Shown: positions 1 through 28,214, numbered from the stretch's first letter. The stretch is DNA of 64,000 nucleotides from Bacillota bacterium (GCA_023394875.1 JAEXAB010000003.1:431895-495894); one strand, 5' to 3'. Made by a program: numbers and translations. The notes: generated by a model not told the origin, from the letters alone.

Positions 1-3000
1 GCGGCATAGGCGCCGTGGTAAATATAAAGGGTATAGCGTCACACAAAATTGTGGACGACGCTTTGCATATCGTGGAAAAATTAGAGCACCGCGCAGGTAA
101 AGACGCGTCAGGCGAAACAGGCGACGGAGTAGGTATAATGCTACAGATTTCTCACGAATTTTTCTTATCTGAGGCAAAAAAAATCGATATCGACCTCAAA
201 GAAAAAAGAGGTTACGGCATTGGTATGTTCTTCTTTTCTCAAGACGCTTTGGAAAGAAACCGCGCCATGAAAATGTTGGAAATTATTACGAAAAAAGAAG
301 GTTTGGAGTTCCTCGGTTGGAGAAAAGTACCCACTAATGAAGAAATTTTGGGCAAAAAAGCCAGAGAATGTATGCCGTCTATTTTTCAATGCTTTATTGC
401 CCGCCCCAAAGACAAGTCCATAATGGACTTCGAACGGAAACTTTACGTAATAAGAAGAGTTTTCGAAAAAAGCGACGATATGGCGTACACCGTTTCTTTG
501 TCGGCTAGGACGATTGTTTATAAGGGAATGTTTTTGGTTTGTCAATTAAGGAACTTTTATCCCGATTTAATAAGCGAAAACTACACCTCGGCTATTGCCA
601 TGGTACACTCCAGATTTTCCACCAACACCAACCCCAGTTGGGAAAGAGCCCACCCAAACAGAATTATTCTTCACAACGGAGAAATAAACACCATCCGCGG
701 CAACGTCGACAGAATGCTTACCCGCGAAGAATCCATGAAATGCGACGCTTTAGGCGAAGATTTGGAAAAAGTTCTGCCTTGCATTAACGCATCGGGCTCC
801 GACTCGGCAATGCTGGATAACGCTTTGGAATTCTTGATGATGAGCGGTATGCCTTTACCTTTGGCTATGATGATTACCGTGCCCGAACCTTTCCGCAACA
901 GAGAGGATATAAGTAGAGAAAAGAGAGATTTTTATCACTACTATTCCACAATGATGGAGCCTTGGGACGGCCCCGCCGCGATACTGTTTTCCGACGGCGA
1001 TATTTTGGGAGCAACATTAGACAGAAACGGTCTGCGCCCTGCAAGATACTACGTTACCGAAGACGACACTTTGATTCTTTCTAGCGAAGTGGGCGTTCTG
1101 CCTGTGCCCGAAGAAAAGATTATTCAAAAATCCAGGCTTACCCCGGGAAAAATGCTGCTTATTGACACAATAAACGGCAAAATTATTTCCGATGAGGAAT
1201 GTAAAAGTTACTATTCCCAAAAGAACCCGTACGGAGAATGGCTAAGCGATAATTTAATCAAGTTGTCTTCCCTAAAAATCCCCAACAAAAAAGTGGAAAA
1301 GCACGACCAAATTACCCGCGACAAGCTCTATAAAGCCTTCGGTTATACTTACGAATGTATCAAAAACCAAATTATACCCATGGCGAAAAACGGCTCGGAG
1401 CCGATAACCTCTATGGGCGTTGACGTACCTTTGGCGGTGCTTTCGGAAACACATCAACCCTTGTTTAACTACTTCAAACAGATGTTTGCTCAGGTAACCA
1501 ACCCGCCTTTGGACGCTATAAGGGAAGAAATTGTTACCGATACCGCCGTATATTTGGGTACAGACGGCGATTTGTTGAACGAAAAACCAGCAAACTGCAA
1601 CGTTTTGGAAATTAATAATCCTATTTTAACCAACGTTGACATGATGAAAATAAAAAATATGAGCCATCCGAATCTAAAGACGGAGACTATTTCTCTACTT
1701 TATTATATCGGCACACCCATAGAAACGGCTTTGGAACAGTTATTTGTTTCCTGCGAAAAAGCCTATAAAAAAAGTTGCAATATCCTAATTCTATCCGACC
1801 GCGGAGTGGATGAAAACCATCTTGCCATACCTTCCCTTTTGGCGGTATCGGCTATGGAACAATACTTGATAAGAACCAAAAAAAGAACGGCTGTTTCGGT
1901 AATATTGGAGAGTGCAGAACCCAGAGAAGTTCATCACTTTGCCACCCTTTTAGGCTACGGCGCAAGGGCAATTAACCCATATCTTGCGTTGGAGTGTATT
2001 GAAGAAAGCATAGAAAAAGGCATGCTGAATAAGGATTATTACACGGCGGTAAACGACTATGCCAACGCTATTTTGCATGGAATAGTAAAAATTGCTTCCA
2101 AAATGGGCGTTTCTACCCTTTCGTCCTATCAATCGGCGCAGATTTTTGAGGCGGTGGGTATTTCTAAAGCGGTAATCGAACCGTATTTTACCAACACGAT
2201 AAGCAGAATAGAGGGTATCGGCTTAAAGGAAATTTCCGACGGAGTGAAATACCGCCACGCCCAAGCCTTTGACCCAATTAACTTAAACGTTGACCTTACT
2301 ATAGAAAGCGGCGGCTCCCATTGTTTGCGCTCCCTTAAAAACAGCGAAGACCATATGTATAATCCCCAAACGATTACTGCTTTAAGAGAGGCGGTGCAAA
2401 ATGGGGACTATGGTAGGTTTAAGGAATATACCGCTATGGTGGACGATGAAACAATCCCCCATACCTTACGCGGTTTATTAACTTTTAACAAAATTAATCC
2501 TTCCATATCACTTGACGAAGTGGAAAGCGTGGAAAGTATTTTGCAACGCTTCAAAACGGGAGCGATGAGCTACGGCTCAATATCTAAAGAGGCGCACGAA
2601 TGTATGGCGTTGGCTATGAATGCAATCGGCGGCAAATCCAATTCCGGCGAAGGCGGAGAAGAAACCGAAAGACTGCATACCGACCGCGCAAGCTCCATTA
2701 AGCAAGTGGCGTCGGGAAGATTCGGCGTAACCGAAGAATATTTACTCAGCGCAACAGAAATTCAGATAAAAATGGCGCAGGGCGCAAAACCGGGCGAAGG
2801 CGGACACTTACCAGGTAATAAAGTATATCCTTGGATAGCAAAAACACGCCACTCTACCCCCGGCGTGTCTCTTATTTCTCCCCCGCCTCATCACGATATA
2901 TACTCAATTGAGGACTTGGCGCAGCTTATTTACGACCTGAAGAACGCCAACAGAAAGGCAAGAATATCGGTAAAACTAGTTTCCGAAGCGGGTGTTGGCA

Positions 3001-4475
3001 CCATTGCTTCGGGTGTGGCTAAGGCAGGGGCGCAAGTTGTGCTGATTTCGGGCTATGACGGCGGCACGGGCGCAGCTCCGGCAAGCTCAATTCACAACGC
3101 AGGCTTACCTTGGGAACTAGGTTTGGCAGAAGCCCACCAGACACTTATTAAAAACGGTTTGCGCTCTAAAGTGGTTTTGGAAACGGACGGCAAACTTATG
3201 AGCGGAAGAGACGTTGCCATAGCCGCAATGCTTGGCGCCGAAGAATTCGGCTTTGCCACTGCTCCGTTGGTCGCTATGGGCTGTCTTATGATGCGTGTCT
3301 GCGACAAAGACAACTGCCCTGTCGGTATTGCCACACAAAACGCTGTTTTGCGCAAGCGCTTTGCGGGTAAGCCAGAATACGTAGTCAACTTTATGCGTTT
3401 TATTGCTCAGGAAGTTCGCGAAATTATGGCTTTCTTAGGAATTAAGACGATTGACGACCTTATCGGCCGCACCGAATTTTTGAAAATCTGCGACAAGAGT
3501 ATTAAAGTCTGCTCAAAATCGGTGGATATTTCGGGCATACTAAATCAGCATGCAAATAATACCGTACATTTCCGCAAGGGCGACGTTTTTGACTTCAAAC
3601 TTAACGAAACAGTTGACGAAAGCGTATTAATCCCGCAGTTTGGCGAAGCTATAGAAAAGAAGGAAAAGAAAGAAATCAGTATTAAAGTTTCCAGCACCAA
3701 CCGCGCTTTGGGCACTATATTAGGTTCGGTTATCTGCGAAAAATATAAGAATACCTTACCCGAAGACACTTACGTTATTAACTGCGAAGGCGGTGGAGGT
3801 CAATCCTTCGGCGCGTTTATGCCAAACGGACTTACCTTACGCTTAAACGGTGACAGCAACGACTATTTCGGCAAAGGTCTGTCGGGCGGCAAACTGGTAG
3901 TTAAGGTGCCCAAAAATAGCAAACTGGTTGCCGAAGAGAACATTATTATCGGCAACGTAGCTCTTTACGGCGCCACAAGCGGTCAGGCTTATATAAACGG
4001 CGTAGCGGGCGAACGCTTCTGCGTAAGAAACTCCGGAGCGACGGCTGTAGTTGAGGGCGTGGGCGACCACGGCTTAGAATACATGACGGGCGGTATTGTT
4101 TGCGTGTTAGGTAAAACCGGCAAAAACTTTGCTGCTGGCATGAGCGGCGGCGTTGCCTTTGTACTGGATGAAAAACACGATTTATACACCAGACTCAACA
4201 AAGAAATGGTAAAAAGTATGCCAATTCGTCAAGAAACGGATATTAACACTCTAAGAGAACTTATAGAAAAGCACACCAAAGAGACAGGCTCTAAGTTGGG
4301 TCAAAGAATTTTGGATAATTTTACTACTTATCTACCAAAATTCAAGAAAATTATACCTATCGACTACAGCGAAATGATGGAGCTGACACAAAAATACCAA
4401 AGCGAAGGTTATTCCAAGTCAGAAGCCCAAGATAAGGCTTTCTATGAGCTCCAAGGAATAAAGGGAGGCAAGTAA
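1..4475 (+). CDS. gltB: Glutamate synthase large subunit, 5' end truncated by the window edge
   Basis: 1486-aa ORF. The frame stays open back to nt 3 (GIGAVVNIKG..., the segment right after the Ntn-amidotransferase Cys1), so the GTG at 15 is not the true start. Conserved GltB motifs are present: GKSNSGEGGE, AKPGEGGHLPG and the C-terminal GXGXG-type domain. Confidence 0.95.
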   Translation, partial: GIGAVVNIKGIASHKIVDDALHIVEKLEHRAGKDASGETGDGVGIMLQISHEFFLSEAKKIDIDLKEKRGYGIGMFFFSQDALERNRAMKMLEIITKKEGLEFLGWRKVPTNEEILGKKARECMPSIFQCFIARPKDKSIMDFERKLYVIRRVFEKSDDMAYTVSLSARTIVYKGMFLVCQLRNFYPDLISENYTSAIAMVHSRFSTNTNPSWERAHPNRIILHNGEINTIRGNVDRMLTREESMKCDALGEDLEKVLPCINASGSDSAMLDNALEFLMMSGMPLPLAMMITVPEPFRNREDISREKRDFYHYYSTMMEPWDGPAAILFSDGDILGATLDRNGLRPARYYVTEDDTLILSSEVGVLPVPEEKIIQKSRLTPGKMLLIDTINGKIISDEECKSYYSQKNPYGEWLSDNLIKLSSLKIPNKKVEKHDQITRDKLYKAFGYTYECIKNQIIPMAKNGSEPITSMGVDVPLAVLSETHQPLFNYFKQMFAQVTNPPLDAIREEIVTDTAVYLGTDGDLLNEKPANCNVLEINNPILTNVDMMKIKNMSHPNLKTETISLLYYIGTPIETALEQLFVSCEKAYKKSCNILILSDRGVDENHLAIPSLLAVSAMEQYLIRTKKRTAVSVILESAEPREVHHFATLLGYGARAINPYLALECIEESIEKGMLNKDYYTAVNDYANAILHGIVKIASKMGVSTLSSYQSAQIFEAVGISKAVIEPYFTNTISRIEGIGLKEISDGVKYRHAQAFDPINLNVDLTIESGGSHCLRSLKNSEDHMYNPQTITALREAVQNGDYGRFKEYTAMVDDETIPHTLRGLLTFNKINPSISLDEVESVESILQRFKTGAMSYGSISKEAHECMALAMNAIGGKSNSGEGGEETERLHTDRASSIKQVASGRFGVTEEYLLSATEIQIKMAQGAKPGEGGHLPGNKVYPWIAKTRHSTPGVSLISPPPHHDIYSIEDLAQLIYDLKNANRKARISVKLVSEAGVGTIASGVAKAGAQVVLISGYDGGTGAAPASSIHNAGLPWELGLAEAHQTLIKNGLRSKVVLETDGKLMSGRDVAIAAMLGAEEFGFATAPLVAMGCLMMRVCDKDNCPVGIATQNAVLRKRFAGKPEYVVNFMRFIAQEVREIMAFLGIKTIDDLIGRTEFLKICDKSIKVCSKSVDISGILNQHANNTVHFRKGDVFDFKLNETVDESVLIPQFGEAIEKKEKKEISIKVSSTNRALGTILGSVICEKYKNTLPEDTYVINCEGGGGQSFGAFMPNGLTLRLNGDSNDYFGKGLSGGKLVVKVPKNSKLVAEENIIIGNVALYGATSGQAYINGVAGERFCVRNSGATAVVEGVGDHGLEYMTGGIVCVLGKTGKNFAAGMSGGVAFVLDEKHDLYTRLNKEMVKSMPIRQETDINTLRELIEKHTKETGSKLGQRILDNFTTYLPKFKKIIPIDYSEMMELTQKYQSEGYSKSEAQDKAFYELQGIKGGK

Positions 4476-4476
4476 T

Positions 4477-5943
4477 ATGGGCAAGCCTACAGGATTTTTA
4501 GAATATCAACGTAAAAATAACGGCTCTCTTCCCGTCAAAGAACGGATAAAGAACTATAACGAATTTCATCCCGAAGTGGACGAGGAAGAAAGAAAGAGAC
4601 AAGGCGCGCGCTGCATGAACTGCGGTGTTCCTTTCTGCCAATCGGGAATGATGCTGGATAACATGATAAGCGGTTGTCCTTTGCATAATCTAATCCCCGA
4701 ATGGAATGACGAACTTTATAACAATATACCAAAACAAGCCTTATCCAGGCTTCTTAAAACCAACAACTTCCCAGAGTTTACGGGCAGAGTCTGCCCTGCT
4801 CCGTGCGAAGCGGCTTGCACCTGCGCCCTTCACGGCGATGCGGTAACCATTAGAGAAAATGAACTTTATATAATAGAAAATGCCTTTGAAAAAGGCTTTA
4901 TCAAGCCTAAAGATATATTGGCGCGTTCAGGAAAAAAAGTTGCGGTAGTAGGCTCAGGCCCCGCCGGACTTGCCGCCGCCGATTCTCTTAACTTCCGCGG
5001 TCATGATGTCACCGTTTTTGAAAGAGAAGATCGCTTAGGCGGACTACTTATGTATGGCATACCCAATATGAAGATAGAAAAAAGCGTTATCGACAGAAGA
5101 ATAGACCTCATGAAAAAAGAAGGGGTAAAATTTGTTACCAACGCCGATATAGGTAAAAATTATCCCGTACAAGATTTGCTTAATAATTTCGACGCCGTAG
5201 TTCTTGCCTGCGGAGCAAAAAAACCCAGAGATTTGCCCGCAAATAAAGACAAAGCCCCCAACGTGTATTTCGCGGTGGATTTTCTAACGTCTACTACTAA
5301 GAGTCTGCTTGATTCCAATATGAGCAACACATATATTAGCGCAAAGGACAAAAAAGTTGTCATAATCGGCGGCGGAGATACCGGTAACGACTGTGTGGCA
5401 ACCTCAGTAAGGCACGGTTGCAAGTCGGTTGTTCAGATAGAAATGCTCTCCTGTCCCCCCATTAAACGAACTTTGGATAATCCTTGGCCGCGCTTCCCGA
5501 AAACTCTCAAAACCGATTACGGTCAACAGGAAGCCATAGAAGTTTTCGGCAACGACCCCAGAGTTTTTTCCACTACGGTAAAGGAATTTATCAAAGGAGA
5601 AGACGGGCTGGTTAATAAAGTTGTCACCGTGGAATTAAAATGCGAATGCGATATTTCGGGAAAAAGAACTCTAACAGAAGTTACTGACAGCGAAAAAGTT
5701 CTGGACGCTGATTTAGTTATTATCGCGGCAGGTTTTGTTGGTTGTGAGGAGTATATTGCCAAAGCTTTCTGCATATCTATAAATTCTAGAGGGGTAATTC
5801 CTACCGATTGTAACTACAACGTTAATAACTCCAAAATCTTCTGTTGCGGAGATATGCGTATAGGTCAATCCCTTATTGTAAGGGCAATTGCAGAGGGTAG
5901 AGAATGCGCGGAGAATGCAGATAGGTTCTTAACCGCAAAATAA
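4477..5943 (+). CDS. gltD: Glutamate synthase small subunit (NADPH-dependent)
   Basis: 488 aa. The ATG lies 1 nt after the gltB stop. Cys clusters CMNCGVPFCQ and CPAPCEAAC. Two dinucleotide-binding motifs, VVGSGPAGLAAA and IIGGGDTGND. Confidence 0.93.
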   Translation: MGKPTGFLEYQRKNNGSLPVKERIKNYNEFHPEVDEEERKRQGARCMNCGVPFCQSGMMLDNMISGCPLHNLIPEWNDELYNNIPKQALSRLLKTNNFPEFTGRVCPAPCEAACTCALHGDAVTIRENELYIIENAFEKGFIKPKDILARSGKKVAVVGSGPAGLAAADSLNFRGHDVTVFEREDRLGGLLMYGIPNMKIEKSVIDRRIDLMKKEGVKFVTNADIGKNYPVQDLLNNFDAVVLACGAKKPRDLPANKDKAPNVYFAVDFLTSTTKSLLDSNMSNTYISAKDKKVVIIGGGDTGNDCVATSVRHGCKSVVQIEMLSCPPIKRTLDNPWPRFPKTLKTDYGQQEAIEVFGNDPRVFSTTVKEFIKGEDGLVNKVVTVELKCECDISGKRTLTEVTDSEKVLDADLVIIAAGFVGCEEYIAKAFCISINSRGVIPTDCNYNVNNSKIFCCGDMRIGQSLIVRAIAEGRECAENADRFLTAK

Positions 5944-5979: not shown

Positions 5980-6008
5980 TTGACATGCTTTTTACGGAAT
6001 TGTATAAT
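5980..6008 (+). promoter_or_regulatory. Consensus sigma-A type promoter for the glutamine synthetase leader
   Basis: TTGACA (5980-5985), exactly 17-nt spacer, TATAAT (6003-6008). Predicted TSS near 6015. Confidence 0.6.
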
Positions 6009-6020
6009 TATTCTAATAAA

Positions 6021-6070
6021 CGGCAAAGGTGTCGCAGAGTAATCTGTAAATCTGTGTCGTTTCTTTTTTT
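6021..6070 (+). promoter_or_regulatory. Leader element copy A: hexaloop hairpin overlapping a weak GU-rich terminator-like hairpin
   Basis: CGGC-AAAGGT-GTCG (6021-6034) folds as a 4-bp stem with a hexaloop. Nt 6029-6038 can instead pair with 6051-6060 (several G-U pairs, one mismatch), followed by TTCTTTTTTT. Confidence 0.35.
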
Positions 6071-6101
6071 AGCTATATAATGTAATAAAAACAAATATAA
6101 T

Positions 6102-6151
6102 ATGCGGCAAAGGCGTCGTCGAAGGTATTCGGGCGCCTTTGCCGCATTTTT
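6102..6151 (+). terminator. Intrinsic terminator in the GS leader, containing hexaloop hairpin copy B
   Basis: ATGCGGCAAAGGCG (6102-6115) pairs perfectly with CGCCTTTGCCGCAT (6134-6147), followed by TTTTT. It lies about 30 nt upstream of the glnA RBS. Nt 6105-6118 (CGGC-AAAGGC-GTCG) can form the alternative small hairpin. Confidence 0.7.
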
Positions 6152-6183
6152 ATATTAAAAAATAAAAAAGGAGAAAGAAGAGT

Positions 6184-8277
<2,094 letters not shown>

Positions 8278-8333
8278 TCAAAACTTGAGGAAGTAAAACA
8301 GTACTAATAGAAAAATTAAAATTACAAAAACCG

Positions 8334-8365
8334 CTCAGCTATTTCGGAAAATCGGGATAGCTGAG
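8334..8365 (+). terminator. Hairpin downstream of glnA (possible weak terminator)
   Basis: CTCAGCTAT (8334-8342) pairs with ATAGCTGAG (8357-8365) around a 14-nt loop. The following T tract is poor (TAGTATTT). Confidence 0.35.
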
Positions 8366-8392
8366 TAGTATTTAATTAGGAGGCAACAATAT

Positions 8393-9973
8393 ATGTGTTC
8401 AATAATGGGTTATATAGGCGACAGTATTTCTGTCGAAGAGTTCAAACAAGGTTTTTTGGAAACGGTATCCAGAGGTCCCGATATGTCGGAAATTTTTATG
8501 GACGGCAACGCTATCTTAGGTTTTCACCGTCTTGCTATTATGGGTCTTTCTCCCAATGGTATGCAGCCTTTTTATTTCAATAATAACGCGGTGGTTTGCA
8601 ACGGCGAATTGTACGGCTTCCGCGCGTTGAAGAATGAGCTTATTAATAAAGGCTACACCTTCCATAGCGAATCCGACTGCGAACTTTTGCTTCCCCTTTA
8701 TAATGAACACGGTCTTGATATGTTCAATATGCTAGACGCCGAATTTGCCTTAATTATCTACGATAAAACCACTCATTCCTTAATTGCCGCGCGCGACCCT
8801 ATAGGGATAAGACCCCTTTATTACGGCTATGACAAGGACGGCAAAATAATATTTGCCTCCGAAGCTAAGAACCTAGTAAAATTATGTACTAAGGTTATGC
8901 CTTTCCCGCCGGGACATTATTATTCAGACGGCAAGTTTACAATGTACCGCGACATCACCAAAGTTAATAAGTTCACTACCGAAAGTATCGACGAAGTTTG
9001 CAAAAAAATCAAAGAAAAGTTGGATGCCGGTATCATTAAGAGACTGGACGCCGACGCTCCTTTGGGCTTTTTGTTGAGTGGCGGACTTGATTCTTCTTTG
9101 GTTTGCGCCGTTGCCGCAAAGTACCTTAAAAAACCCATAGAAACCTTTTCTATCGGTATGAAGACTGACGCAATTGACCTAAAATACGCCCGCGAAGCGG
9201 CAGACTATATTAAGTCAAATCATCACGAAATAATAATCACCGAAGAAGACGTAATTGAGTATCTGCCCGAAGTCGTTCATATTTTGGGAACCTACGATAT
9301 TACCACGATAAGAGCTTCTATGGGTATGTATCTTATTTGCAGAGCAATTCATCTTCAGACCGATATAAGAGTGCTTTTAACGGGAGAAATTTCCGATGAG
9401 TTGTTCGGCTATAAATACACCGACTACGCTCCCTCACCTACTGAATTCCAAAAAGAAGCGGTAAAAAGAATAAGTGAAATCCATATGTATGACGTACTGA
9501 GAGCGGACAGATGTATAAGTTCTAACTCCTTGGAAGCCAGAGTGCCTTTCGGGGATTTGGATTTTGTCAGCTACGTTATGAGCATTGCTCCCGAAATGAA
9601 AATGAACACCTACGGAATAGGAAAATACCTTCTAAGAAAAGCCTATGAGGGTGATTATTTGCCTCAATCACTTTTAATGCGTGAAAAAGCGGCTTTTAGC
9701 GACGCGGTGGGTCATTCTCTGGTTGACCACATAAAAGCCTACGCCGAAGCAAAATATACCGACAGTGATTTTGCCGAAAAAATAAAGAAATACGACTTTG
9801 CAAGACCCTTTACCAAAGAGAGTTTGTTGTATAGGGAATTATTCGAACAATTTTATCCGGGACAAGCCGAAATGGTAAAAGACTTTTGGATGCCCAATAA
9901 GTGTTGGGAAGGCTGCAACGTCAACGACCCGTCGGCGAGAGTGCTTTCTAACTACGGCAAGAGCGGAGTATAG
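8393..9973 (+). CDS. asnB: Asparagine synthetase (glutamine-hydrolysing), short E. coli AsnB-like form
   Basis: 526 aa. Begins MC (Cys2 Ntn nucleophile). PP-loop SGGLDSS. SD AGGAGG is upstream. Confidence 0.9.
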   Translation: MCSIMGYIGDSISVEEFKQGFLETVSRGPDMSEIFMDGNAILGFHRLAIMGLSPNGMQPFYFNNNAVVCNGELYGFRALKNELINKGYTFHSESDCELLLPLYNEHGLDMFNMLDAEFALIIYDKTTHSLIAARDPIGIRPLYYGYDKDGKIIFASEAKNLVKLCTKVMPFPPGHYYSDGKFTMYRDITKVNKFTTESIDEVCKKIKEKLDAGIIKRLDADAPLGFLLSGGLDSSLVCAVAAKYLKKPIETFSIGMKTDAIDLKYAREAADYIKSNHHEIIITEEDVIEYLPEVVHILGTYDITTIRASMGMYLICRAIHLQTDIRVLLTGEISDELFGYKYTDYAPSPTEFQKEAVKRISEIHMYDVLRADRCISSNSLEARVPFGDLDFVSYVMSIAPEMKMNTYGIGKYLLRKAYEGDYLPQSLLMREKAAFSDAVGHSLVDHIKAYAEAKYTDSDFAEKIKKYDFARPFTKESLLYRELFEQFYPGQAEMVKDFWMPNKCWEGCNVNDPSARVLSNYGKSGV

Positions 9974-18468: not shown

Positions 18469-21400
18469 TTATTGGGCTTTCAATAATGTATAATCGAAGT
18501 CTAAGATTAGTAGCGTATAATTGGTTCCGCCCTGCTCGTATTTCTGATAAGCGAACGTTCCCAGGTCTTTGTTCAATCTTACATCGTCTGCGCTGGGCGT
18601 CTTTAGCACTTCGCCTGTGGAAGGATCTGTTTCGGGTAAGAAAGTATCGGGATTCAGACTTATTGTGCTTAATGTTATGTATTGCCAGGTAACATAGTTT
18701 GTAGCGCCCCACATAAAGCTAGGATTAATAATAATGTCGGCAGATATCTCTGGCGAATAGACGGTTTCTGTTACGCCGCCGGCTCCTGTGGTTTGTCTAG
18801 AGTACGTAACAACAGGCAGTTCGCCACGCTCAAAGATTTGGAAGCTGTAGCTTGTCCAAGCTCTCTGATAACTTCTCTTTACGTTATAGTTCAAGCTGTT
18901 ATTTACATAAATACGGAGCTTGAAATAAGCGTTAGCAGTAGCGGTATTTCTGGTAAAGGCATTGGAAGACAGAGCCGCAGGCGTTGAACTATAGATAGAA
19001 ATCTTTGCTAATCTTACACAACCTAAGAATACGTATGATTCAATAGTCTTGACGTTGTAATTTAGTTCTATTCCGTACATTCCGGAGCAGTTTTCGAAAG
19101 CATTTGCTTTTATGGTTTCCAGTCTGTTAGGCAATACTACGGTAATAAGGGACGGCGCGTTGAGATTTAATCTGCTTCCTAACAAAATACAGTTATAGAA
19201 TGCTCTTTCTGCAATAACTTTTAATTTGCTTTCGCTGATATTAAACTTAACTTCCAATAAGGCTTTACAGTTATAGAAAGTTTCTTGATTAATAATGGTT
19301 ACTTCATTAGGTATGGAAATTGTACTCAGTTGTTCGCAGTTGTAGAATACGCCCGAACCTAAGGTATGAAGCTTGCTGTACGTATCGATTCTTACCTCAA
19401 TGTTGCCGTTAACTTCCTGTGTAGTCATATAATCGAAAGTAACAGTCTTTAACTTTTTGCAGTTTAAGAACACTTCGTTACCAAGTACGGTTACGTAAGG
19501 CGGTATTTCTATTGACGTTAGGTTGTTGCAGTTACTAAACGCTTTGTCGCCGATAGTTACAGCTACAAAAGAGTTGTTGTTCTTTATTTGAGTTATCTTC
19601 TGTGTGTTGAGTATAAAGACAATCTTAGTTAAAGAGATGTTGTTTGCAAAAGCGTTCTTGCCGATGCTCTCAACCGACGCGGGGATTTTTGCCTCGCCGA
19701 CTACGCTAGAATTTATTGTGCTCAATCTGTCGCAACCATAGAAAGCGTTATCACCGATAGTTTTAAGGGTGCTAGGCAGGGTAAGGGAAATAAGCTGACT
19801 GCTTTCGAAAGCTTTGTTGCTTATAGCCACAATTCCTTCGGGCACAACAATGTTTGACGCCGTGCTTACGCATTTAATCAACACTTTACCCAAAATAAGC
19901 ATATTGGAGTTATCGTTTACGTAGAAATCAGTCTCGCTGAACACGCTGTCGGCTATATATATAAGGTTATTACCCGCTTCTATATTGGTAGTAATATTGA
20001 TATCCTTAAAGGCCAAAGTGTTTATCCTTTCTAGGTTTACCGGTAACTTGACGCTGACAAACTCCATAAATACGGTGTTGCTTTCGCTCCTGCTGTTATA
20101 GTTAAGGTTGCTTGCCAAAGACCTTATGGTAAAGCCTTTTATACTATCGGGTATAGCCAATCTGTTGGTCATTGCAATCTGGCGGTACTCAAGTAGCATA
20201 TTGCCTGCGCTGTAGAATACGCCCACTATTGCCGAAGCTTGCACGTATTCTTCTTTCGCGGCCGCTGTTTCGTACCAAGCGGTGTTGTTAAAGGAAGTGC
20301 TGTCGGCGTCTATAAGATTAATGCTTGTGCCGAATACTATTTGGTTAAGGCTGTTGTTAAAGGCGTGGTAACCTATCTTAGTAATGGTGTTAGCTATGGT
20401 TACCTTATTAAGTCCGCTGTTAATAAAGGCATAATCGAATATTTCGGTAACGCCGTTGGGAATAACAAACTCAGTAGCCTTAGTCTTGTTTTCTCCGTTT
20501 ACAACAAATCTGGCTACGTAGGCTACTATGCTCTTAAGAACGTTTGTACTGCCTACTTTCTCATAGAAATAAACCACACCGTCAGACACCATAAAGGTAG
20601 CTTCCACGTTATCGCTGCTAAGTAGTACCAATTCTTCCAAATTGGGGAAGAAACGGAAGATATTGTTGGTCATTCCGTTAAAGTTGCTGGCGTTGGTAAG
20701 AATTAACTTCTTAACGTTTACTGCGTTGGAAGCTAAATTAATGGAAGTAACTTTCCTGCCGTTTACTGTTGCGGGAATATATAACTCTTGTACAGCCGTT
20801 TCCACTCCGGTAACAGTGTAAACTGCTTTTAACGAATCATAGGTAAAGGATAGGTTTGCATCGCTGTTTACGTTGGGTATATCGTTCTGATACCACTTGG
20901 CATAAAGCTGTATAGAAGAAAAAACTTTATAAGGAAGAACAAGTTTTTGATTCTTGAGTGCATCTGTATACCAGCCTACAAAGGTGTTACCTGTCTTAGC
21001 CGGGGTGCCGATACTCTCTATTACTTCGGACTTGAAGGACTGCATATAATATCCTTGGTCGGTTTCGAAAGTAACTTCGGGATAATCTCCGTCCATAAAC
21101 AGAGTGAAGGATGTACCCCATCTAGACCAAGCGTTAACTTGTCTCTCTAAATCGGTTTCGTTCGGGTTGGAGTTATCAATATAGCGGTAAGCTTCACTGT
21201 TCATATAAATTCTTATCGCTTTGCCTGTGCTCTCACGTTCAAACAAACCATTCATTTTCTCACGGTAATTGGTAAAACTATAACTAGTAAGTAAGCTTAC
21301 TATGTATTCAGCCAGAGCGTTTATTTGCGCTTCGCTGGATGTCCACTCTACTTTATACAGTTCGTTACAGTTATAGAATGCCTGTTCTCCTATTTCAACT

Positions 21401-24400
21401 ACTCCCGAATACATTTTTAAGTACGTCAAAGAACTGTTGCCGTAGAAAGCTTGTCTTCCTATAGAAGTAACGCTCTGCGGTATAATAAGTTCTTTTATAG
21501 CGCAACCTTTGAAGGCTTCGGCTCCGATAACTTTGAGATTATCCTGTAAAACAATAGTTTCTAACCTATTACAGCTGAGGAACGCCTGTTCGCCTATAGA
21601 AATTAGCAAGCTGTTTGCCATAAATTCCACTGTAAGCAAGGACGCGCTGTTATAGAATGCCCTTCTTTCGATGTATTTTACGCTGCTAGGAATAATAACC
21701 TTGCTAATAACGCTGTTTTCGAAAGCACCGGTCAATATACTCTCAACTCCGTTAGGCACTGTTGCGATTATGCCTTCTTCTTGAATAACGTCGGAAGCGA
21801 TGTATTTTATCAATACGTTGCCGATAACAAGATACTGCGCAACGCTTAAATCTACGCTGCCTTGGTACCACTTAGTATCGATAAGTCCCGAACCGCCGCT
21901 TGCCACAGAGGAAGTAAGTTTTTCGGTTACTTTCAAGCCAGGCGCGATTATAGAGGCAAGTTTAACACAGCCTTGCAAACTTCCTTTCTTAAATTCCTTT
22001 ACAGCGTTATTGAGTCTCAACGTCTCAAGAGAACTGCAACCGCGGAACAAATCTTCGTTGAGGAATTCTACAGTGGCTGTTCCAAAGTCTACAGTCTTTA
22101 ATTCTGCACAATCCATGAATGCGCCTTTTCCTAGGAGCGTTACGGTATTTGGTAATATAATACCGGTAATTCCGCTTCCACTGAAGGCGTAATCGCCGAT
22201 TTTAACCAGGCGGGAATTGTTAGCAAACTGAACAGTCGACATATTTACGTTTTCGAAAGCGTATGCGCTTATTTCGGTAATATACGCAGGTATAATAACG
22301 GTGGAAGCGCCTGTATAGTCGTTATATTTAGCAAGAATGGTGCCAACAATTACCATATCCTGTGTAGCAAGCCAAGGAGTATTGGCAAAAGCCGCTAAAT
22401 CAAGTTCTTTAAGTTTGCTGTTGGAAGAATCGTTTCCGGAACTGTAAGTTACGAATTTCAAAGCCGAATCGGTAAAGCAATCTGTACCTATATATAATAG
22501 ATTATCGTTAATGACTATTTCTTCGACAACAGCATTGTCCATAAACAGCTCATCGTTAAGTTTAATAGCTTCGGCAGGAACTCTTACAATCTTTTCTTCG
22601 GTCAGAACGTATTCTATTGCCAATCTGCCCGCCATAATAAAGCCGTTATTGATTCCGGTTAATGCTTTGTTCCTTTGCGTTGTATACCACTTTGTGCCGG
22701 TGAAAGCCGCGGTGGGGGCGCTAACTAGATTACTGTTTGAGCCAAACTCTATATCCAGTCCTGCAATATTGTTAAATACATTGCCGATAATAGTTTCCAA
22801 AGAAGACGGCAGATAAATATAAGTAAGGTTACTGTTAAAGATTCCGTTTACGTTATCGCTACCGTTCGAATACTTGCCGCCGTGGGACAAAATCTTTACT
22901 CCGTCAGGCAGAACTATTTCAGTAAGGCTGTTGCATTCGCTGAAAGCACCTGCATAGACAGCCACAATGGGATAATTGTCTCCGCTGGCGTTGGTGTAGG
23001 TTGACGGAATAAAAATACTGTCAGCTGTCGGGCTACTGAATTTTACAAGCTCCCAACCTTTGAGAGTTTCGTTATAAATAAGGTCATCGTCAACCAAAGA
23101 ACCTTTCGTCAGGCTATAATACTTAGCATAAAGGGTAGTATCGGCGCTAATTAGCATCGGGAACTCCGCCTTTGCATAAGTTGTGCCGGTAATATTTATA
23201 TACCAACCGTCGAATAAATATCCGATATAAGCAGGAGCCGAAGGTGATTGGCTTATGTATGCTACATTGCTTAACCTATCCTTATTGAATGCGGCGTTTA
23301 CTGAGAAGTTTGGCATCGTAGCGAAGCTTACTGAAGGCAGATTTCTTCTAATGTTAGACAAATAATTATCTTGTAGGTTGCCTTGGTTTGCATTGGCATT
23401 TATATAGATATATGCGGTAATGGGGAAGACTCCTTCGTCAATAATAGATGCAGTCTCACTCAAAATTCCGCCAGTACCCATTATTCTTATGGTCTCAAGC
23501 AAGTCGCAACCACTGAAAGCATAACCGCCGATAGAGGTAATTATGTGGCTTATTACTACGTACTGTAAAGAAGTACAATTTTGGAATGCGCCCGCTCCTA
23601 TCTTTGTGGCAGCCGAAGCCGTCAAATCAACTACTTCTATAGATGCGCAATCTCTGAAGGCTTCGCCGGGTATTTCCGCCAAAGGAGCTATGATGTTGAC
23701 TATATCGGTTAGAGCTGAACAACCTGCAAATGCGTAGGAGTTTTGAATTTCGTCCACACCAAAACGGACAACGTAAGGCATATTCACCGACACAAGGCTG
23801 ATACAACCTTGGAAGGTAGCCAAATGCAATGTTCCGCCGTTAATTGCGTTGGGTATGCTTACCGATTCTAATTGAATACTGTTCTTGAACGCGCCGTTCT
23901 TTAATACTGTTACGTTGGTTAGAACTACGTTTACTAAACCGGAGTTTTCAAAAGCGCCTTCCTCAATGGAAATAACTTTATTAAGGTTAATACTTTCTAA
24001 GTCGGTGCAGTTTTGGAAAGCGAACTTTCCGATATATTTTACCGAATCAGGTAAGGTTATTTTGCTAAGGTTTGTATCCTTAAAGAAGTTATCGGGTATA
24101 GTTACTATTCCGCTTAGTTTATCGGCGCCCACTTCGGTTAGAGGCACGATTTCGTCTTCATCATTTATTGTGGTAGCGCTGTTGTTATAACCGATAAGCT
24201 TGCCGCCCAAAACGATGATGTTGTTATTTGCATAATACTTTGTATCCGCAAAAACTTCTTTAGAAACAACTGCGGTGCTTGCCCAATTTGCAACAACAAT
24301 GTTTGCCAAAGAGGTGCAACCGTCTACTACGTAATAATTAAAACCGTTTAGCGTGGCGTTAATAACAAGGCTTTCCAAATATATATAATTGCTGAACGCT

Positions 24401-27400
24401 CTTTGAACGAAGCCAACTACAGGATAACCGTTAAAGGTAGCTGGAACGGTGATTTCTTTTGCATACCTGTTGCCGAACACTACTCTTGCTCTGTCTTCTC
24501 CAACGGTAAATACCAAGTCGGAAACTGAGTCATAAACACTGTAATAGCCGTCTTCGGAAACAAGATAAACTTTATCCCAACTGTTGTCGGATACGATTTC
24601 CGCAAAGTTTACCACTGTGCCTTCTATATAATATCTGACGGTGTTGCCAAACAACGCAATCAAATCATTTACGTCGTCTTCAAAGTTATTAAGTACGTTC
24701 TCATTTACCGATACCGACTTAATAAAGGCTTTGGCAGTATAAGTAAGGCTGTCGGACGCATTTGCCAAAATATCAACAATTGTGGCAGGCAAATACAAAA
24801 TGTTAACGGTAGCGAAAGCAAACGCCGATTGGTCGATTGTCTTTACGGTAGAAGGTATAGTATAATTACCGTTCCTGTTGGACGGATAGTACAACAAAAC
24901 GCCGTCTTCTGTATCATAAGTAAATAAAACTCCGCTATTTACAAAATAAACTTCATTGTTATTTGCTACGTTTACGTTCTTTAGGAAAGCAAACATATAA
25001 CCAAGAACCGCAGCTTCATCAGACATTCCGACAGGCAGATTGTCAAATTCAAATTCCACAAGAGTAGCGGGCAAATAAATGTTCTCAACTAAATAATCTT
25101 TTCCTGCGGCGGTAAGATCGTCAATATTAAGATATATCTTTCCGAAACCTTCGCCCAAAGTTATGCTTGTAATCTTATAGCTTGCGTCAATAACCGACAT
25201 ATCGAAAGTCTTGGTTTCTTCCCCTGCGGAAAGTACCATCGCGCTTCCTATTGATAATTGTGTAAGAACGGACATCTGCGCGAAAGCATAACTTCCGATA
25301 GTCTTTAACTTCGGCATATTGATAGCGGTCAACTTGGTATTACGGAAGGCGTTTTCTCCCACAGAAACCACGTTTTGAAGTAAGCTTACGCTTTCTAGTG
25401 CGGAATTATAGAATGCATCCTTACCGATTGTGGTAACCGAAGTTATATTAACGGTCTTTACTCCGCTATCCTTAAACGCGCCTTCGCCAATGGTAGTAAC
25501 GGTGCTCGGGAACACTACTTCTATTATGTTTTGACTTTCGGCAAAGGTATATGCGGGGACGATAACAAGTTCGGAACCTGCGCCGAAAATAATCTTGACT
25601 TTGTTATTGTCTTTTGTCTTTGCTTTCCAGAAAACGTCTATCCCCAGTTCGTCAACGGAGGGAAGGAGTAAATCGCCAAGTAGCGTTGCGCCCTCAAAAG
25701 CGTTGCTGGATATTTTCGTTACTGTAGAGGGTATTGTTACGTTTACAATCTTGTTTTTGAATACGTCTGCGGCAATTTCGGTAACGTTCTTTCCTTCATA
25801 AGTTGATGGAATATAAACATTGACGGAAGTACCGGTATAATTGCTGACGGTGTAGTTATCGCCGTTTAAGGTAAATGCCAGTCCTACGGTAGGCTTGGAA
25901 GAGTCAACCGCACTGATAGTGAATTCATAAATTGCATTGCCTGTCTTAGGCTCCAATACTATCTTGCCGGTTGTGATATCGGTCGCTCCGTAAGAAACAG
26001 TGTCAATCTGATAATTGCTGACTGCGCCTTGCTGTCCGCCAAACTGCGCCCTTACAAGAGGCATAACAACGTTGTTGATAAAGTTAAGATTAATTTCGTC
26101 TTGATATTCGGTAGTATCGATAAATACTTCTTTCACTACGTCGTCAGGACTGCCTACGGCAACTTTATGTCCCACGAAAGTAACGTAGAACTTGGTACCG
26201 ATTTTTTGCTTTACGTATACCGGTTGAAGCCTCATATCCTTGGTTACGTTTACCGTACCCGAAACTTCTTTGTTATTGTCGTTAAGGTCCACCCATTTGC
26301 CGATAAAATTATAACCGGTTACGTTCTTAGCTCCGGTAGGCAAAGTATATTGTTCGCCTACGTTTATCATAACGTAGTCAAAAGAGCCGTCGGCAAAACT
26401 GACGGTAAACTGTCTGGGTTCTACTATTGCAACAATCTGAATGTCGGTGGTAACGGTAGCGGGCATAGACAGCCATCTTTCAAAGGTAAGATTAGCTCCG
26501 CTCTGATTGGACAAAAGGCTCTTGGCTTCCTCCGCCTTTTGCATAGGATTGTTTATTTTTACGTTTTCATAAAACTGTCTTCTGTTGCCGTCCAAAAGGG
26601 GATAAAGAATTTCCGTTCTGTGGGAATAAGCATAAAAGTACGTGACGGTTTTGGTCGCATACTCATAAGTCATATTGAATGTAACGTTGTTTGTAACGGT
26701 ATATGTGGAGAAATCAATACCCCAGCCGTAGCTGCTTAATTCTGCGGGTTTCTGCCAAGAGGGAGGGGTAATTTTGCTGCCGTGAGTTACCGTGGAGGTG
26801 GAAACTACACTGCCTTTATAGTCAACGAAGGTGACGGTATATGAAGATTGGTTGTCGGTATAGGTTGCGTATACAACGTAGGAATCGTTAATTGCGTTAA
26901 GGTTTATTGTGGCGCCGCCACTTACCCAGCCTGCGAAAATTTTGCCTGTCAAAACGGGAGGATTGGGAGCAGTAATAGAACCGCCCTTTACTGTATATTT
27001 TTTGGCAAGCTGTCCTCCGTCCTTGTCAAGGAAGGTTACGCTTACGGTTTCTGTGCCCGCGTCCACTAAGTATATCGATACTATCGCCGTCTTTTGGAGA
27101 TAATAAAGGGTAAGTGTTTTTTGTCCCGGAGTTTTTAACGATTCTCTGGACTCTGCGGTAAGCATAGAATTTTCGGCGGCAATTTTTACAACGGTGCGGT
27201 CTTCCATAGTAACCGAAAGGAATATATCGGAAATATTAAACTTGCCGACCACAGCGACTGCGGGAACCGTGTCTTCAATAACTTCCATAGATTCTATCTT
27301 CATGGCGTTATTGCACGCGGTCAGCGTAATCAGGGAAAATACAATAATCACTGCCAGCAAAGCAATGACGCTTGTTCTCTTTCCCCACGGTCTTGTTTTC

Positions 27401-27405
27401 TTCAT
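18469..27405 (-). CDS. Giant surface lipoprotein with BspA-type leucine-rich repeats and Listeria-Bacteroides (Flg_new-like) repeats
   Basis: Start revised to the ATG at 27405 (MKKTRPW..., SD GGAGG 9 nt upstream), giving 2,978 aa. Signal peptide ends in lipobox LTAC. At least six repeats of about 70 aa end in an aromatic-GW motif (FAGWVSG, IGKWVD, FDGWYI, FVGWYT). Many repeats of the type IPSTVTxIxxxAFxxC follow. No C-terminal sorting motif was seen. Confidence 0.85.
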   Translation of the reverse strand: MKKTRPWGKRTSVIALLAVIIVFSLITLTACNNAMKIESMEVIEDTVPAVAVVGKFNISDIFLSVTMEDRTVVKIAAENSMLTAESRESLKTPGQKTLTLYYLQKTAIVSIYLVDAGTETVSVTFLDKDGGQLAKKYTVKGGSITAPNPPVLTGKIFAGWVSGGATINLNAINDSYVVYATYTDNQSSYTVTFVDYKGSVVSTSTVTHGSKITPPSWQKPAELSSYGWGIDFSTYTVTNNVTFNMTYEYATKTVTYFYAYSHRTEILYPLLDGNRRQFYENVKINNPMQKAEEAKSLLSNQSGANLTFERWLSMPATVTTDIQIVAIVEPRQFTVSFADGSFDYVMINVGEQYTLPTGAKNVTGYNFIGKWVDLNDNNKEVSGTVNVTKDMRLQPVYVKQKIGTKFYVTFVGHKVAVGSPDDVVKEVFIDTTEYQDEINLNFINNVVMPLVRAQFGGQQGAVSNYQIDTVSYGATDITTGKIVLEPKTGNAIYEFTISAVDSSKPTVGLAFTLNGDNYTVSNYTGTSVNVYIPSTYEGKNVTEIAADVFKNKIVNVTIPSTVTKISSNAFEGATLLGDLLLPSVDELGIDVFWKAKTKDNNKVKIIFGAGSELVIVPAYTFAESQNIIEVVFPSTVTTIGEGAFKDSGVKTVNITSVTTIGKDAFYNSALESVSLLQNVVSVGENAFRNTKLTAINMPKLKTIGSYAFAQMSVLTQLSIGSAMVLSAGEETKTFDMSVIDASYKITSITLGEGFGKIYLNIDDLTAAGKDYLVENIYLPATLVEFEFDNLPVGMSDEAAVLGYMFAFLKNVNVANNNEVYFVNSGVLFTYDTEDGVLLYYPSNRNGNYTIPSTVKTIDQSAFAFATVNILYLPATIVDILANASDSLTYTAKAFIKSVSVNENVLNNFEDDVNDLIALFGNTVRYYIEGTVVNFAEIVSDNSWDKVYLVSEDGYYSVYDSVSDLVFTVGEDRARVVFGNRYAKEITVPATFNGYPVVGFVQRAFSNYIYLESLVINATLNGFNYYVVDGCTSLANIVVANWASTAVVSKEVFADTKYYANNNIIVLGGKLIGYNNSATTINDEDEIVPLTEVGADKLSGIVTIPDNFFKDTNLSKITLPDSVKYIGKFAFQNCTDLESINLNKVISIEEGAFENSGLVNVVLTNVTVLKNGAFKNSIQLESVSIPNAINGGTLHLATFQGCISLVSVNMPYVVRFGVDEIQNSYAFAGCSALTDIVNIIAPLAEIPGEAFRDCASIEVVDLTASAATKIGAGAFQNCTSLQYVVISHIITSIGGYAFSGCDLLETIRIMGTGGILSETASIIDEGVFPITAYIYINANANQGNLQDNYLSNIRRNLPSVSFATMPNFSVNAAFNKDRLSNVAYISQSPSAPAYIGYLFDGWYINITGTTYAKAEFPMLISADTTLYAKYYSLTKGSLVDDDLIYNETLKGWELVKFSSPTADSIFIPSTYTNASGDNYPIVAVYAGAFSECNSLTEIVLPDGVKILSHGGKYSNGSDNVNGIFNSNLTYIYLPSSLETIIGNVFNNIAGLDIEFGSNSNLVSAPTAAFTGTKWYTTQRNKALTGINNGFIMAGRLAIEYVLTEEKIVRVPAEAIKLNDELFMDNAVVEEIVINDNLLYIGTDCFTDSALKFVTYSSGNDSSNSKLKELDLAAFANTPWLATQDMVIVGTILAKYNDYTGASTVIIPAYITEISAYAFENVNMSTVQFANNSRLVKIGDYAFSGSGITGIILPNTVTLLGKGAFMDCAELKTVDFGTATVEFLNEDLFRGCSSLETLRLNNAVKEFKKGSLQGCVKLASIIAPGLKVTEKLTSSVASGGSGLIDTKWYQGSVDLSVAQYLVIGNVLIKYIASDVIQEEGIIATVPNGVESILTGAFENSVISKVIIPSSVKYIERRAFYNSASLLTVEFMANSLLISIGEQAFLSCNRLETIVLQDNLKVIGAEAFKGCAIKELIIPQSVTSIGRQAFYGNSSLTYLKMYSGVVEIGEQAFYNCNELYKVEWTSSEAQINALAEYIVSLLTSYSFTNYREKMNGLFERESTGKAIRIYMNSEAYRYIDNSNPNETDLERQVNAWSRWGTSFTLFMDGDYPEVTFETDQGYYMQSFKSEVIESIGTPAKTGNTFVGWYTDALKNQKLVLPYKVFSSIQLYAKWYQNDIPNVNSDANLSFTYDSLKAVYTVTGVETAVQELYIPATVNGRKVTSINLASNAVNVKKLILTNASNFNGMTNNIFRFFPNLEELVLLSSDNVEATFMVSDGVVYFYEKVGSTNVLKSIVAYVARFVVNGENKTKATEFVIPNGVTEIFDYAFINSGLNKVTIANTITKIGYHAFNNSLNQIVFGTSINLIDADSTSFNNTAWYETAAAKEEYVQASAIVGVFYSAGNMLLEYRQIAMTNRLAIPDSIKGFTIRSLASNLNYNSRSESNTVFMEFVSVKLPVNLERINTLAFKDINITTNIEAGNNLIYIADSVFSETDFYVNDNSNMLILGKVLIKCVSTASNIVVPEGIVAISNKAFESSQLISLTLPSTLKTIGDNAFYGCDRLSTINSSVVGEAKIPASVESIGKNAFANNISLTKIVFILNTQKITQIKNNNSFVAVTIGDKAFSNCNNLTSIEIPPYVTVLGNEVFLNCKKLKTVTFDYMTTQEVNGNIEVRIDTYSKLHTLGSGVFYNCEQLSTISIPNEVTIINQETFYNCKALLEVKFNISESKLKVIAERAFYNCILLGSRLNLNAPSLITVVLPNRLETIKANAFENCSGMYGIELNYNVKTIESYVFLGCVRLAKISIYSSTPAALSSNAFTRNTATANAYFKLRIYVNNSLNYNVKRSYQRAWTSYSFQIFERGELPVVTYSRQTTGAGGVTETVYSPEISADIIINPSFMWGATNYVTWQYITLSTISLNPDTFLPETDPSTGEVLKTPSADDVRLNKDLGTFAYQKYEQGGTNYTLLILDFDYTLLKAQ

Positions 27406-27473
27406 AAAGCGAAACCTCCACATTTCAGCAAAAATTTTACAAACCGTATACATACAAATGTACAGTTATATAA

Positions 27474-27653: not shown

Positions 27654-28214
27654 TTATTTTTTATCGGTTTTTATCCTTTTTGGATAGGTTCTTATACGCT
27701 TTCTGAAGCGGAATTTTTCGGGCGGAATTACTTCCTGGAGCCTAAAATTAAGGTCGCTCCAGTCCTTTTCGGACAACGCGTTTTTTTTGATATAATAAAA
27801 AACAGCCACCCCCGCATAGATATAAATAAAGTCTCTTTTTATTACCACGTTCTCTAGTTTTTCATAATTGTGTGTTTCGCTGAAAATAGGCTCTCCACCC
27901 TTACCGTAGCTTGTGGCAATTAAAGCTTTATCTTCAAAAAGCAGCCTAATTTTTGCAATTTTTTTCTTTTCTATATCTACCTTATAGCCCGAAATAGACG
28001 TCCATAGAAACAACAGAAAGGTCAAAAATAACAAAGCGCAAGTTACTCCGAAAAGTACGAAAATAAGAATATTATTGGTAAAAACGAATAATAAAACTGC
28101 CGCCACCATCAATAAAAAAAGCAATATAATTTCCCGCAAACCAAAGTATTTGCGCATCAGATACATACTGCAATTAAAGTACTCCCGCTTGTCGGTATTA
28201 ATCATTATTTCCAT
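27654..28214 (-). CDS. Small membrane protein, possibly YcxB-like; function unknown
   Basis: 186 aa. Two adjacent TM helices followed by a soluble C-terminal region. SD GGAGA upstream. Overlaps the upstream gene by 17 nt. Confidence 0.5.
   Translation of the reverse strand: MEIMINTDKREYFNCSMYLMRKYFGLREIILLFLLMVAAVLLFVFTNNILIFVLFGVTCALLFLTFLLFLWTSISGYKVDIEKKKIAKIRLLFEDKALIATSYGKGGEPIFSETHNYEKLENVVIKRDFIYIYAGVAVFYYIKKNALSEKDWSDLNFRLQEVIPPEKFRFRKRIRTYPKRIKTDKK

Follow-up and report, generated by a model that had tools for sequence, protein, structure and literature searches.

The glnN locus and its leader

The window, i.e., the whole 64-kb stretch of DNA analysed here, opens within a gltBD operon. 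This operon is followed by glnN, the gene for a type III glutamine synthetase (GS-III) and the predicted regulated gene of this study, and then by a gene for a glutamine-hydrolysing asparagine synthase. The region upstream of the window was read from L081, a 54.8-kb metagenome scaffold that overlaps the window (window position = L081 position minus 5524). The main genes in the window are:

1-4475, plus strand: gltB, entered by the window 49 nt into the gene
4477-5943, plus strand: gltD, in an operon with gltB
6184-8277, plus strand: glnN, type III glutamine synthetase (Pfam GSIII_N, 3.8e-82; Gln-synt_C; Gln-synt_C-ter)
8393-9973, plus strand: asparagine synthase, glutamine-hydrolysing (Pfam Asn_synthase, 3.6e-70)

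Since the window begins inside gltB, the GTG at position 15 is an artefact as the start of an open reading frame. Divergent from gltB lies another operon, which consists of a type I glutamine synthetase (GS-I) gene, an ANTAR gene and pyrG, in this order. The type I enzyme has 397 aa and intact catalytic motifs, and its closest structures are the GSI-alpha enzymes of archaea and Bacillus.

The intergenic region upstream of the asparagine synthase gene at 8393-9973 showed no ANTAR-type hairpin when the sequence was read, and gave no match to the covariance model of the hairpin described below. The gene is therefore probably co-transcribed with GS-III or located behind a weak terminator. The gap between the two genes holds a structure at 8330-8372 (GCTCAGCTAT...ATAGCTGAG), a hairpin with a poor T tract and not of the ANTAR type, which might act as a leaky terminator. 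The window also encodes another glutamine-hydrolysing asparagine synthase (61678-63537, 619 aa). This gene has neither a hairpin nor a terminator leader upstream, and hence the two paralogues are apparently under different regulation. Elsewhere in the window, the minus strand at 18469-27453 encodes a protein of 2994 aa that consists mostly of BspA-type leucine-rich repeats and Listeria-Bacteroides repeats. The neighbouring gene encodes a Big_2-domain protein (28198-30615), and the region looks like a surface or adhesin locus.

Upstream of glnN, the promoter and the leader contain the following elements:

5980-6008, plus strand: sigma-70-type promoter TTGACA-17-TATAAT, with a predicted transcript start near 6015
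6021-6034, plus strand: hairpin A, CGGC-AAAGGU-GUCG (CGGCAAAGGTGTCG), stem of 4 bp closed by C-G, loop of six nucleotides with A1, A2 and G4
6104-6119, plus strand: hairpin B, GCGGC-AAAGGC-GUCGU (core CGGCAAAGGCGTCG at 6105-6118)
6168-6183, plus strand: ribosome-binding region AAAGGAGAAAGAAGAG, read from the sequence, with the GS-III start codon at 6184

The promoter is as perfect as a preliminary description of this DNA had claimed, with 12 of 12 consensus positions matched. Equivalent promoters lie 10–20 nt 5' of the hairpin in orthologous leaders. Both 14-nt copies that had been described, at 6021-6034 and 6105-6118, are found at these positions. The repeat as a whole is longer than was described, however, and spans 21 nt (6014-6034 versus 6098-6118; 86% identity, 84 nt apart).

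Folded alone, hairpin A reaches -4.3 kcal/mol and hairpin B, as a hexaloop, -5.0 kcal/mol. In ANTAR targets as defined by Ramesh (2012), the stem has 3 bp or more and ends in a conserved closing pair, and the hexaloop carries A1 and G4. The stems of A and B, with 4–5 bp, and their loops AAAGGU and AAAGGC show all of these features. The 14-nt pattern has two exact matches in 64 kb. If up to two mismatches are allowed it has eight, against 0.71 expected, a number reached by none of 100 shuffled sequences. A covariance model of the hairpin, with a seed that included A and B themselves, scored the two at 23.9 and 23.2 bits, respectively. All other matches in the window scored 15.9 bits (the next best) or lower, and were located within coding regions. 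A match at positions 2-15 (CGGCATAGGCGCCG) lies inside the gltB coding sequence, and was taken as a chance occurrence. Mirror matches were seen on the opposite strand, at 6131-6144 of the window (minus strand) and in other loci (L020, 8537-8550; L021 and L056, minus strand). These are not extra copies, because the 3' arm of the terminator complements the hairpin loop, so that the opposite strand reads as C-AAAGG-like sequence.

The preliminary description had proposed a search for more copies before other nitrogen genes. This search was successful in the 280-nt region between the divergent operons, where two further copies were found, each with a terminator:

-110 to -97 (L081 5414-5427), plus strand: gltB leader hairpin CGGCAAAGGCGTCG, the same as copy B, and its terminator; 24.8 bits; behind a TTGACA-17-TATAAT promoter
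Upstream of the window, opposite strand: hairpin GAGCAATGGCGTTC of the GS-I/ANTAR operon leader, and its terminator (-27 kcal/mol)

Together with A and B, these two copies bring the locus to four hairpin-terminator units, whose hairpins score 20–24.8 bits. The ANTAR regulator thus appears to control its own operon.

Terminators and competing hairpins

In the fold of the 172-nt leader (-60 kcal/mol, z = -8.7) there are two stem-loops, with a U tract after each:

6018-6070, plus strand: terminator 1, interrupted stem (6018-6025/6055-6062, 6027-6030/6050-6053 and 6034-6038/6043-6047), then TTTCTTTTTTT
6102-6151, plus strand: terminator 2, 16-bp outer stem (perfect over the 14 bp 6102-6115/6134-6147) and 4-bp inner helix, then TTTTT

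Both have the G+C-rich stem-loop and the directly following U tract of intrinsic terminators. The best fold of terminator 1 lies at -17.1 to -17.4 kcal/mol (z = -5.3; U tract UUUCUUUUUUU). Terminator 2 reaches -33.3 kcal/mol (z = -7.5), and was also detected as an inverted repeat. Its perfect 14-bp stem followed by TTTTT, as given in the preliminary description, was recovered as part of a 16-bp stem that also encloses an inner helix. For terminator 1 the earlier account stands only in part. Its existence and its overlap with copy A are upheld, whereas the proposed pairing register (6029-6038/6051-6060) had to be abandoned, because it reaches only -5.9 kcal/mol and is far weaker than the best fold.

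Like the terminator-proximal hairpin of ANTAR targets, both copies overlap the 5' arm of an intrinsic terminator: the 5' arm of terminator 1 contains all of hairpin A, and that of terminator 2 contains hairpin B. When hairpin A was enforced in the folding model, no pairing was left within 14 nt of the U tract of terminator 1. Enforcing hairpin B reduced the pairing beside the U tract of terminator 2 to a remnant of 3 bp. These modelled structures show each small hairpin and its terminator to be mutually exclusive, in agreement with the earlier claim that either hairpin precludes its terminator. For hairpin A and terminator 1 the exclusivity holds because the corrected fold encloses all of copy A. 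Since each terminator greatly exceeds its small hairpin in stability, the default would be termination, twice. Relief from this default would therefore require a factor that keeps the small hairpins closed during passage of the polymerase.

An 18-codon Arg-rich open reading frame (MRQRRRRRYSGAFAAFLY, 6102-6158) begins at an ATG before hairpin B, overlaps this hairpin and continues through terminator 2. We considered leader-peptide attenuation through this reading frame and rejected it. It has no Shine-Dalgarno sequence and its ATG is missing from orthologous leaders, so that its presence is probably just a side effect of the G+C-rich stem.

Conservation of the hairpin and the genes behind it

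Our comparison covered 80 loci encoding GS-III relatives with 65–91% identity, nearly all from metagenome-assembled genomes (MAGs) of Clostridia, of which the nearest are labelled Christensenella. A further 23 loci encoding relatives of the ANTAR protein were included. In a search of the 260 nt upstream of GS-III at 79 loci, which presupposed no stem, the pattern C-AANGNN-G occurred 70 times, compared to ~20 expected occurrences. The flanks of these occurrences form pairs 2–4 in 54–56 of the 70 cases. Their covariation score of 0.376 exceeded that of shuffled flanks (0.218; none of 500 shuffles reached the observed value), and fell to 0.168 or lower when the partner strand was slid. Stem pairs 2–5 covary, with swaps between C-G and A-U (28/20) and between G-C and A-U (39/17), and the closing C-G pair is invariant. 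At pair 2, G-U was found in 30 of 72 hairpins; such frequent G-U pairs argue for an RNA rather than a DNA element. Hence, the motif is indeed found in orthologous GS-III leaders, as loop and closing pair in 52 of the 79, with flanks that covary as a stem.

The same hairpin stands out when all hexaloop hairpins are compared whose loop and 3' strand are taken up by a downstream terminator. We sorted such hairpins from 104 loci into 384 classes according to their closing pair and the bases at loop positions 1, 2 and 4. Hairpins closed by C-G with an AA.G loop formed a class of 131 members, compared to 37 in the runner-up and a median of 10. In total, 125 non-redundant units of a hairpin and an overlapping terminator, for which the gene downstream could be identified, were found in ~100 Clostridia loci, with the loop consensus AANGRN. 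The genes behind them, with counts biased to GS-III and ANTAR neighbourhoods because the loci were gathered by GS-III and ANTAR homology, encode GS-III (61 units), GS-I-like enzymes, including GS-I(-ANTAR) operons (20), a split archaeal-type glutamate synthase (18), amtB (8), asnA (6), gltB (6) and asnB (3), and in one case each guaA, purF and the ANTAR gene. That unrelated genes are almost missing downstream is not due to the choice of loci. The hairpin is conserved and covaries, and it is confined to the leaders of nitrogen genes: almost all of the 125 units precede genes of nitrogen assimilation, which together make up a coherent regulon.

Nine further units were found outside the 125, among them units before pyrG (2) and gdh (1). 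In relatives, units before guaA, purF, pyrG and the glutamate dehydrogenase gene are located at L033 11691-11708, L072 10019-10036, L095 8564-8581 and L039 3021-3040. As judged from sequence, these units extend the predicted regulon to glutamine-consuming nucleotide synthesis. The split glutamate synthase operon is present in many relatives with GATase, FMN, 4Fe-4S, NAD(P)H and GXGXG subunits, and its leader carries the variant GAAC-AAAGGC-GUUC. In these relatives the operon is followed by GS-I, as at L060 4599-5699 (minus strand), with equivalents in L008, L020, L066 and L080.

The canonical ANTAR target consists of two adjacent hexaloop hairpins, P1 and P2, which are separated by a linker of 5–12 nt in the eut leaders (Ramesh 2012; PMC3369931). 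By contrast, hairpins A and B are 70 nt apart. A second A1/G4 hairpin within 36 nt was found next to only 13 of the 125 units on each side, which is chance level (8.7% in random windows). Therefore, the unit is a single hairpin with its terminator, and the departure from canonical spacing that the preliminary description had pointed out is a conserved difference. The sequence features of the minimal motif of Walshe (2022; PMC8934654), a single hexaloop hairpin with G at position 4 that suffices for an ANTAR dimer to bind, are present in both A and B. A candidate P1 in the present leader, an AU-only hairpin at 6076-6087 (UAU/AAUGUA/AUA, with A1 and G4), has only 3 bp. It lies 16 nt before hairpin B and was rejected as very weak, and the list of adjacent hairpins from other tandem leaders contains no counterpart of it.

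Of 48 GS-III leaders, 13 have tandem units, typically 64–83 nt apart; among the leaders of other genes, a single one has them. In these tandem leaders the first terminator is usually weak (mostly -9 to -19 kcal/mol, up to -31 kcal/mol) and the second is strong (mostly -25 to -41 kcal/mol). The leader in the window is typical of this set, with a distance of 83 nt and terminators of -13.9 and -32.0 kcal/mol as computed in the survey. This pattern favours two independent checkpoints over one stretched P1–P2 site. It also bears out the earlier suggestion that the two copies represent two tandem attenuators, each with its own terminator.

The ANTAR protein and proposed control of the attenuators

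The preliminary description had made the presence of an ANTAR protein in the genome a test of its reading. The contig does encode one, 1.5–2.1 kb upstream of the window start, where its gene is co-transcribed with the type I glutamine synthetase, as in the glnA-nitR arrangement of clostridia:

-2130 to -1534, outside the window (L081 3394-3990): ANTAR protein, 198 aa (Pfam PF03861, E = 1.3e-16, 60.5 bits versus a cutoff of 27.3)

No ANTAR domain was detected by Pfam in the window itself, where the scan covered GS-III, the next four genes downstream and five open reading frames of 168–191 aa elsewhere. The nearest solved structures (PDB) of the protein are Rv1626, AmiR, NasR and EutV. Its subfamily carries the motif AKWIL instead of the usual AKGxLM, and a regular expression for AKGxLM missed the ANTAR proteins in all loci. 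A phmmer search with the L081 protein found ~40 homologues among the fetched loci. These homologues lie within 6 kb of GS-III in ~20 of 80 loci. In 35 of 40 cases the homologue is located directly behind a GS-I gene, and the hairpin is present in the leader of 20 of 34 such operons.

Read against the EutV structure (PMC8934654), the position that stacks on G4 (Y164 in EutV) is His in our protein, as in AmiR, and the hexaloop-plugging Met172 is conserved. The N-terminal domain is receiver-like, but its Response_reg score of 20.8 bits is under the cutoff of 30.2. The phospho-acceptor Asp is replaced by Asn (FDILIINTPL versus DLVIMDVKMP in Rv1626), as it is in most aligned homologues, and the N-terminal DD acidic pair is absent. 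The protein thus lacks both the phospho-acceptor and the acidic pocket of two-component receivers of the EutV and Rv1626 type, and no kinase gene is adjacent to its gene. This is similar to AmiR, which is controlled by AmiC, and NasT, which is controlled by NasS: these proteins also have a receiver-like domain without the phospho-acceptor Asp and no adjacent kinase gene. A receiver domain of this kind points to a protein partner, and the ANTAR protein is probably controlled in this way, like AmiR, and not by a kinase. As a partner, the co-transcribed GS-I is the most plausible candidate, and it would report glutamine, because the ANTAR gene is almost constantly paired with a GS-I gene. In this respect it would differ from AmiR and NasT, whose sensors are periplasmic-binding-protein-like. 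The GS-TnrA/GlnR circuit of Bacillus offers an analogy for glutamine synthetase as a sensor.

How do these results compare with known systems? The targets of EutV (eutP, eutG, eutS and eutA), NasR (nasF) and AmiR (amiE) share with our hairpins the stem of at least 3 bp, the A1/G4 hexaloop and the conserved closing pair. Moreover, in all of them the 3' strand of the hairpin forms part of the 5' arm of the terminator, an ANTAR gene is nearby and the genes are nitrogen-related. In contrast to these targets, there is one hairpin per terminator here, with no conserved partner 5–12 nt away. Position 2 of the loop is also an invariant A, and where hairpins are paired they are 64–83 nt apart and each has its own terminator.

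A further parallel is NitR of C. saccharobutylicum, an ANTAR antiterminator that induces the GS/GOGAT genes upon nitrogen limitation (Stutz 2007, as cited in PMC6316151 and PMC4676874). There, the glnA-nitR and gltAB region likewise has a type I glutamine synthetase gene followed by an ANTAR gene, beside glutamate synthase genes, and the proposed control is antitermination under nitrogen limitation. Our system differs in its main target, which is a type III glutamine synthetase with a tandem attenuator. It also differs in the organism, a Christensenellales-like gut or rumen clostridium. Furthermore, ANTAR-like RNA hits before genes for glutamine synthetase, glutamine synthetase plus ANTAR protein, glutamate synthase, asparagine synthase and ammonium transporters were listed for several Firmicutes in 2012 (PMC3369931, Table S2). 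ANTAR antitermination of nitrogen genes is thus established, and with these glutamine synthetase hits already on record the basic reading of the leader is not new: it belongs to a known regulatory system, the ANTAR control of nitrogen metabolism. The architecture of one hexaloop per terminator, arranged in tandem before GS-III, was not found described in the literature surveyed, which covered NitR through citing papers.

At the gathering threshold no Rfam family was found in the whole window, and a permissive search of the leader gave sub-threshold terminator-like matches and narK, a motif of nitrate transporter leaders, only. The narK model (RF03032) aligned to 6022-6119, but its score of 18.1 bits falls far short of the gathering threshold (43.2 bits), and the leader is not a member of this family. 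Its consensus has a conserved 3' end (CGACAAAGACGUCGC) that differs little from hairpin B (GCGGCAAAGGCGUCGU), whereas the rest of the model has no match, and gene context and phylum differ. This similarity in sequence suggests that the narK motif itself may be an ANTAR (NasR/NasT) site.

We consider it likely that glnN is controlled by NitR-like ANTAR antitermination at two serial attenuators, under nitrogen limitation. By default, each terminator would form, and transcripts would end near 6066-6070 or 6150-6152. Under nitrogen limitation, each hexaloop hairpin would be bound by the NitR-like ANTAR protein on leaving RNA polymerase, and would thereby be kept closed. Because the hairpin loop and 3' strand are part of the terminator 5' arm, a closed hairpin would block the terminator and the polymerase would read into glnN. 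The two attenuators would multiply, so that basal expression would be low and the response steep. Further targets of this protein would be the gltBD leader and the leader of its own operon. In this scheme we infer the ANTAR protein as the binder of the hairpins, the direction of control and the signal. Tandem riboswitches and attenuators, e.g., tandem TPP and T-box elements, also have two sensor-terminator units in series in one leader, and such an arrangement is expected to reduce leakiness and to sharpen the response. Our leader differs in its predicted sensor, a protein-binding hairpin and not a ligand aptamer or a tRNA-binding leader. The interpretation of the A1/G4 hexaloops over terminators as ANTAR targets, as put forward in the preliminary description, gains support from the linked ANTAR gene, the four copies in the locus and the 125 related units, all of which suggest it from sequence.

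Other explanations might account for part of these results. Possibly, A and B are the recruiting P1 and the antiterminating P2 of a single canonical site that has been stretched, with a dimer moving from A to B and terminator 1 incidental. A and B do share the stem and nearly the same loop, the canonical model requires two hexaloops (PMC3369931), and the narK model covers both hairpins at 18 bits. Yet, the gap of 70 nt far exceeds the eut linker, where shortening, or lengthening by 20 nt, abolishes the action of EutV (PMC3369931; PMC8934654). Hairpin A moreover has its own terminator and U tract, which are conserved in 13 tandem GS-III leaders (-9 to -31 kcal/mol), and most leaders of the regulon, including those of gltB and GS-I/ANTAR in the same genome, have a single hairpin. 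A stretched site is therefore improbable. The single-hairpin layout is at odds with the requirements of EutV, which would fit a different trans-acting factor, e.g., another RNA-binding protein of the nitrogen regulon or a small RNA, with the ANTAR gene as a mere regulated neighbour; ~60 of the 80 GS-III loci also have no ANTAR gene within 6 kb. However, short MAG contigs readily explain these absences. The A1, A2 and G4 positions, the hexaloop size and the C-G closing pair fit the recognition rules of ANTAR proteins, the narK motif has a nearly identical CGACAAAGACGUCG, and the hairpin recurs in the leaders of the ANTAR operons themselves. We regard another factor as slightly less probable still than a stretched site.

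The least probable explanation, and a very unlikely one, is that there is no regulation at the RNA level, so that the leader contains constitutive terminators or attenuators, or a palindromic DNA operator of a repressor. The terminators are indeed far more stable than the small hairpins, and the hairpin lies near the promoter. However, the element is strand-specific with respect to the gene that follows, and its pairing is often kept by G-U, which would be a mismatch in DNA; a DNA operator was rejected on the grounds of the G-U pairs and the strand specificity. Furthermore, the loop is invariant while the stem varies, the 5' arm of the terminator is always overlapped, and with no means of relief two strong constitutive terminators ahead of an essential assimilation gene would be senseless.

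A more specific version of this mechanism is put forward only tentatively: the clostridial ANTAR protein might antiterminate through a single hexaloop without a recruitment hairpin, its RNA binding might be set by the co-transcribed glutamine synthetase as glutamine sensor, and the tandem duplication might tune the stringency. The 2022 structure of EutV with RNA showed that the dimer grips one hexaloop at a time and that the minimal binding motif is a single hexaloop, but an upstream recruitment hairpin was still argued to be necessary for co-transcriptional antitermination (PMC8934654). Our survey reveals a large, covarying family of single-hexaloop attenuators before the genes for GS-III, GS-I/ANTAR, both kinds of glutamate synthase, amtB, asnA, asnB and a few amidotransferases. 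This family bears on a question left by the structural study, namely how far ANTAR function through single hexaloops extends, and is a candidate for a natural counter-example to the need for a second, recruiting hairpin. If true, single-hexaloop antitermination would be unexpected under current EutV-based models of the co-transcriptional process. The hairpin-terminator motif could be used to annotate the nitrogen regulons of gut and rumen Clostridia, which are mostly known as MAGs. The glutamine synthetase that is co-transcribed with the pseudo-receiver ANTAR protein may be the sensor in these organisms and, if so, an ANTAR protein under its control would parallel, at the level of RNA, the GS-TnrA/GlnR circuit of Bacillus.
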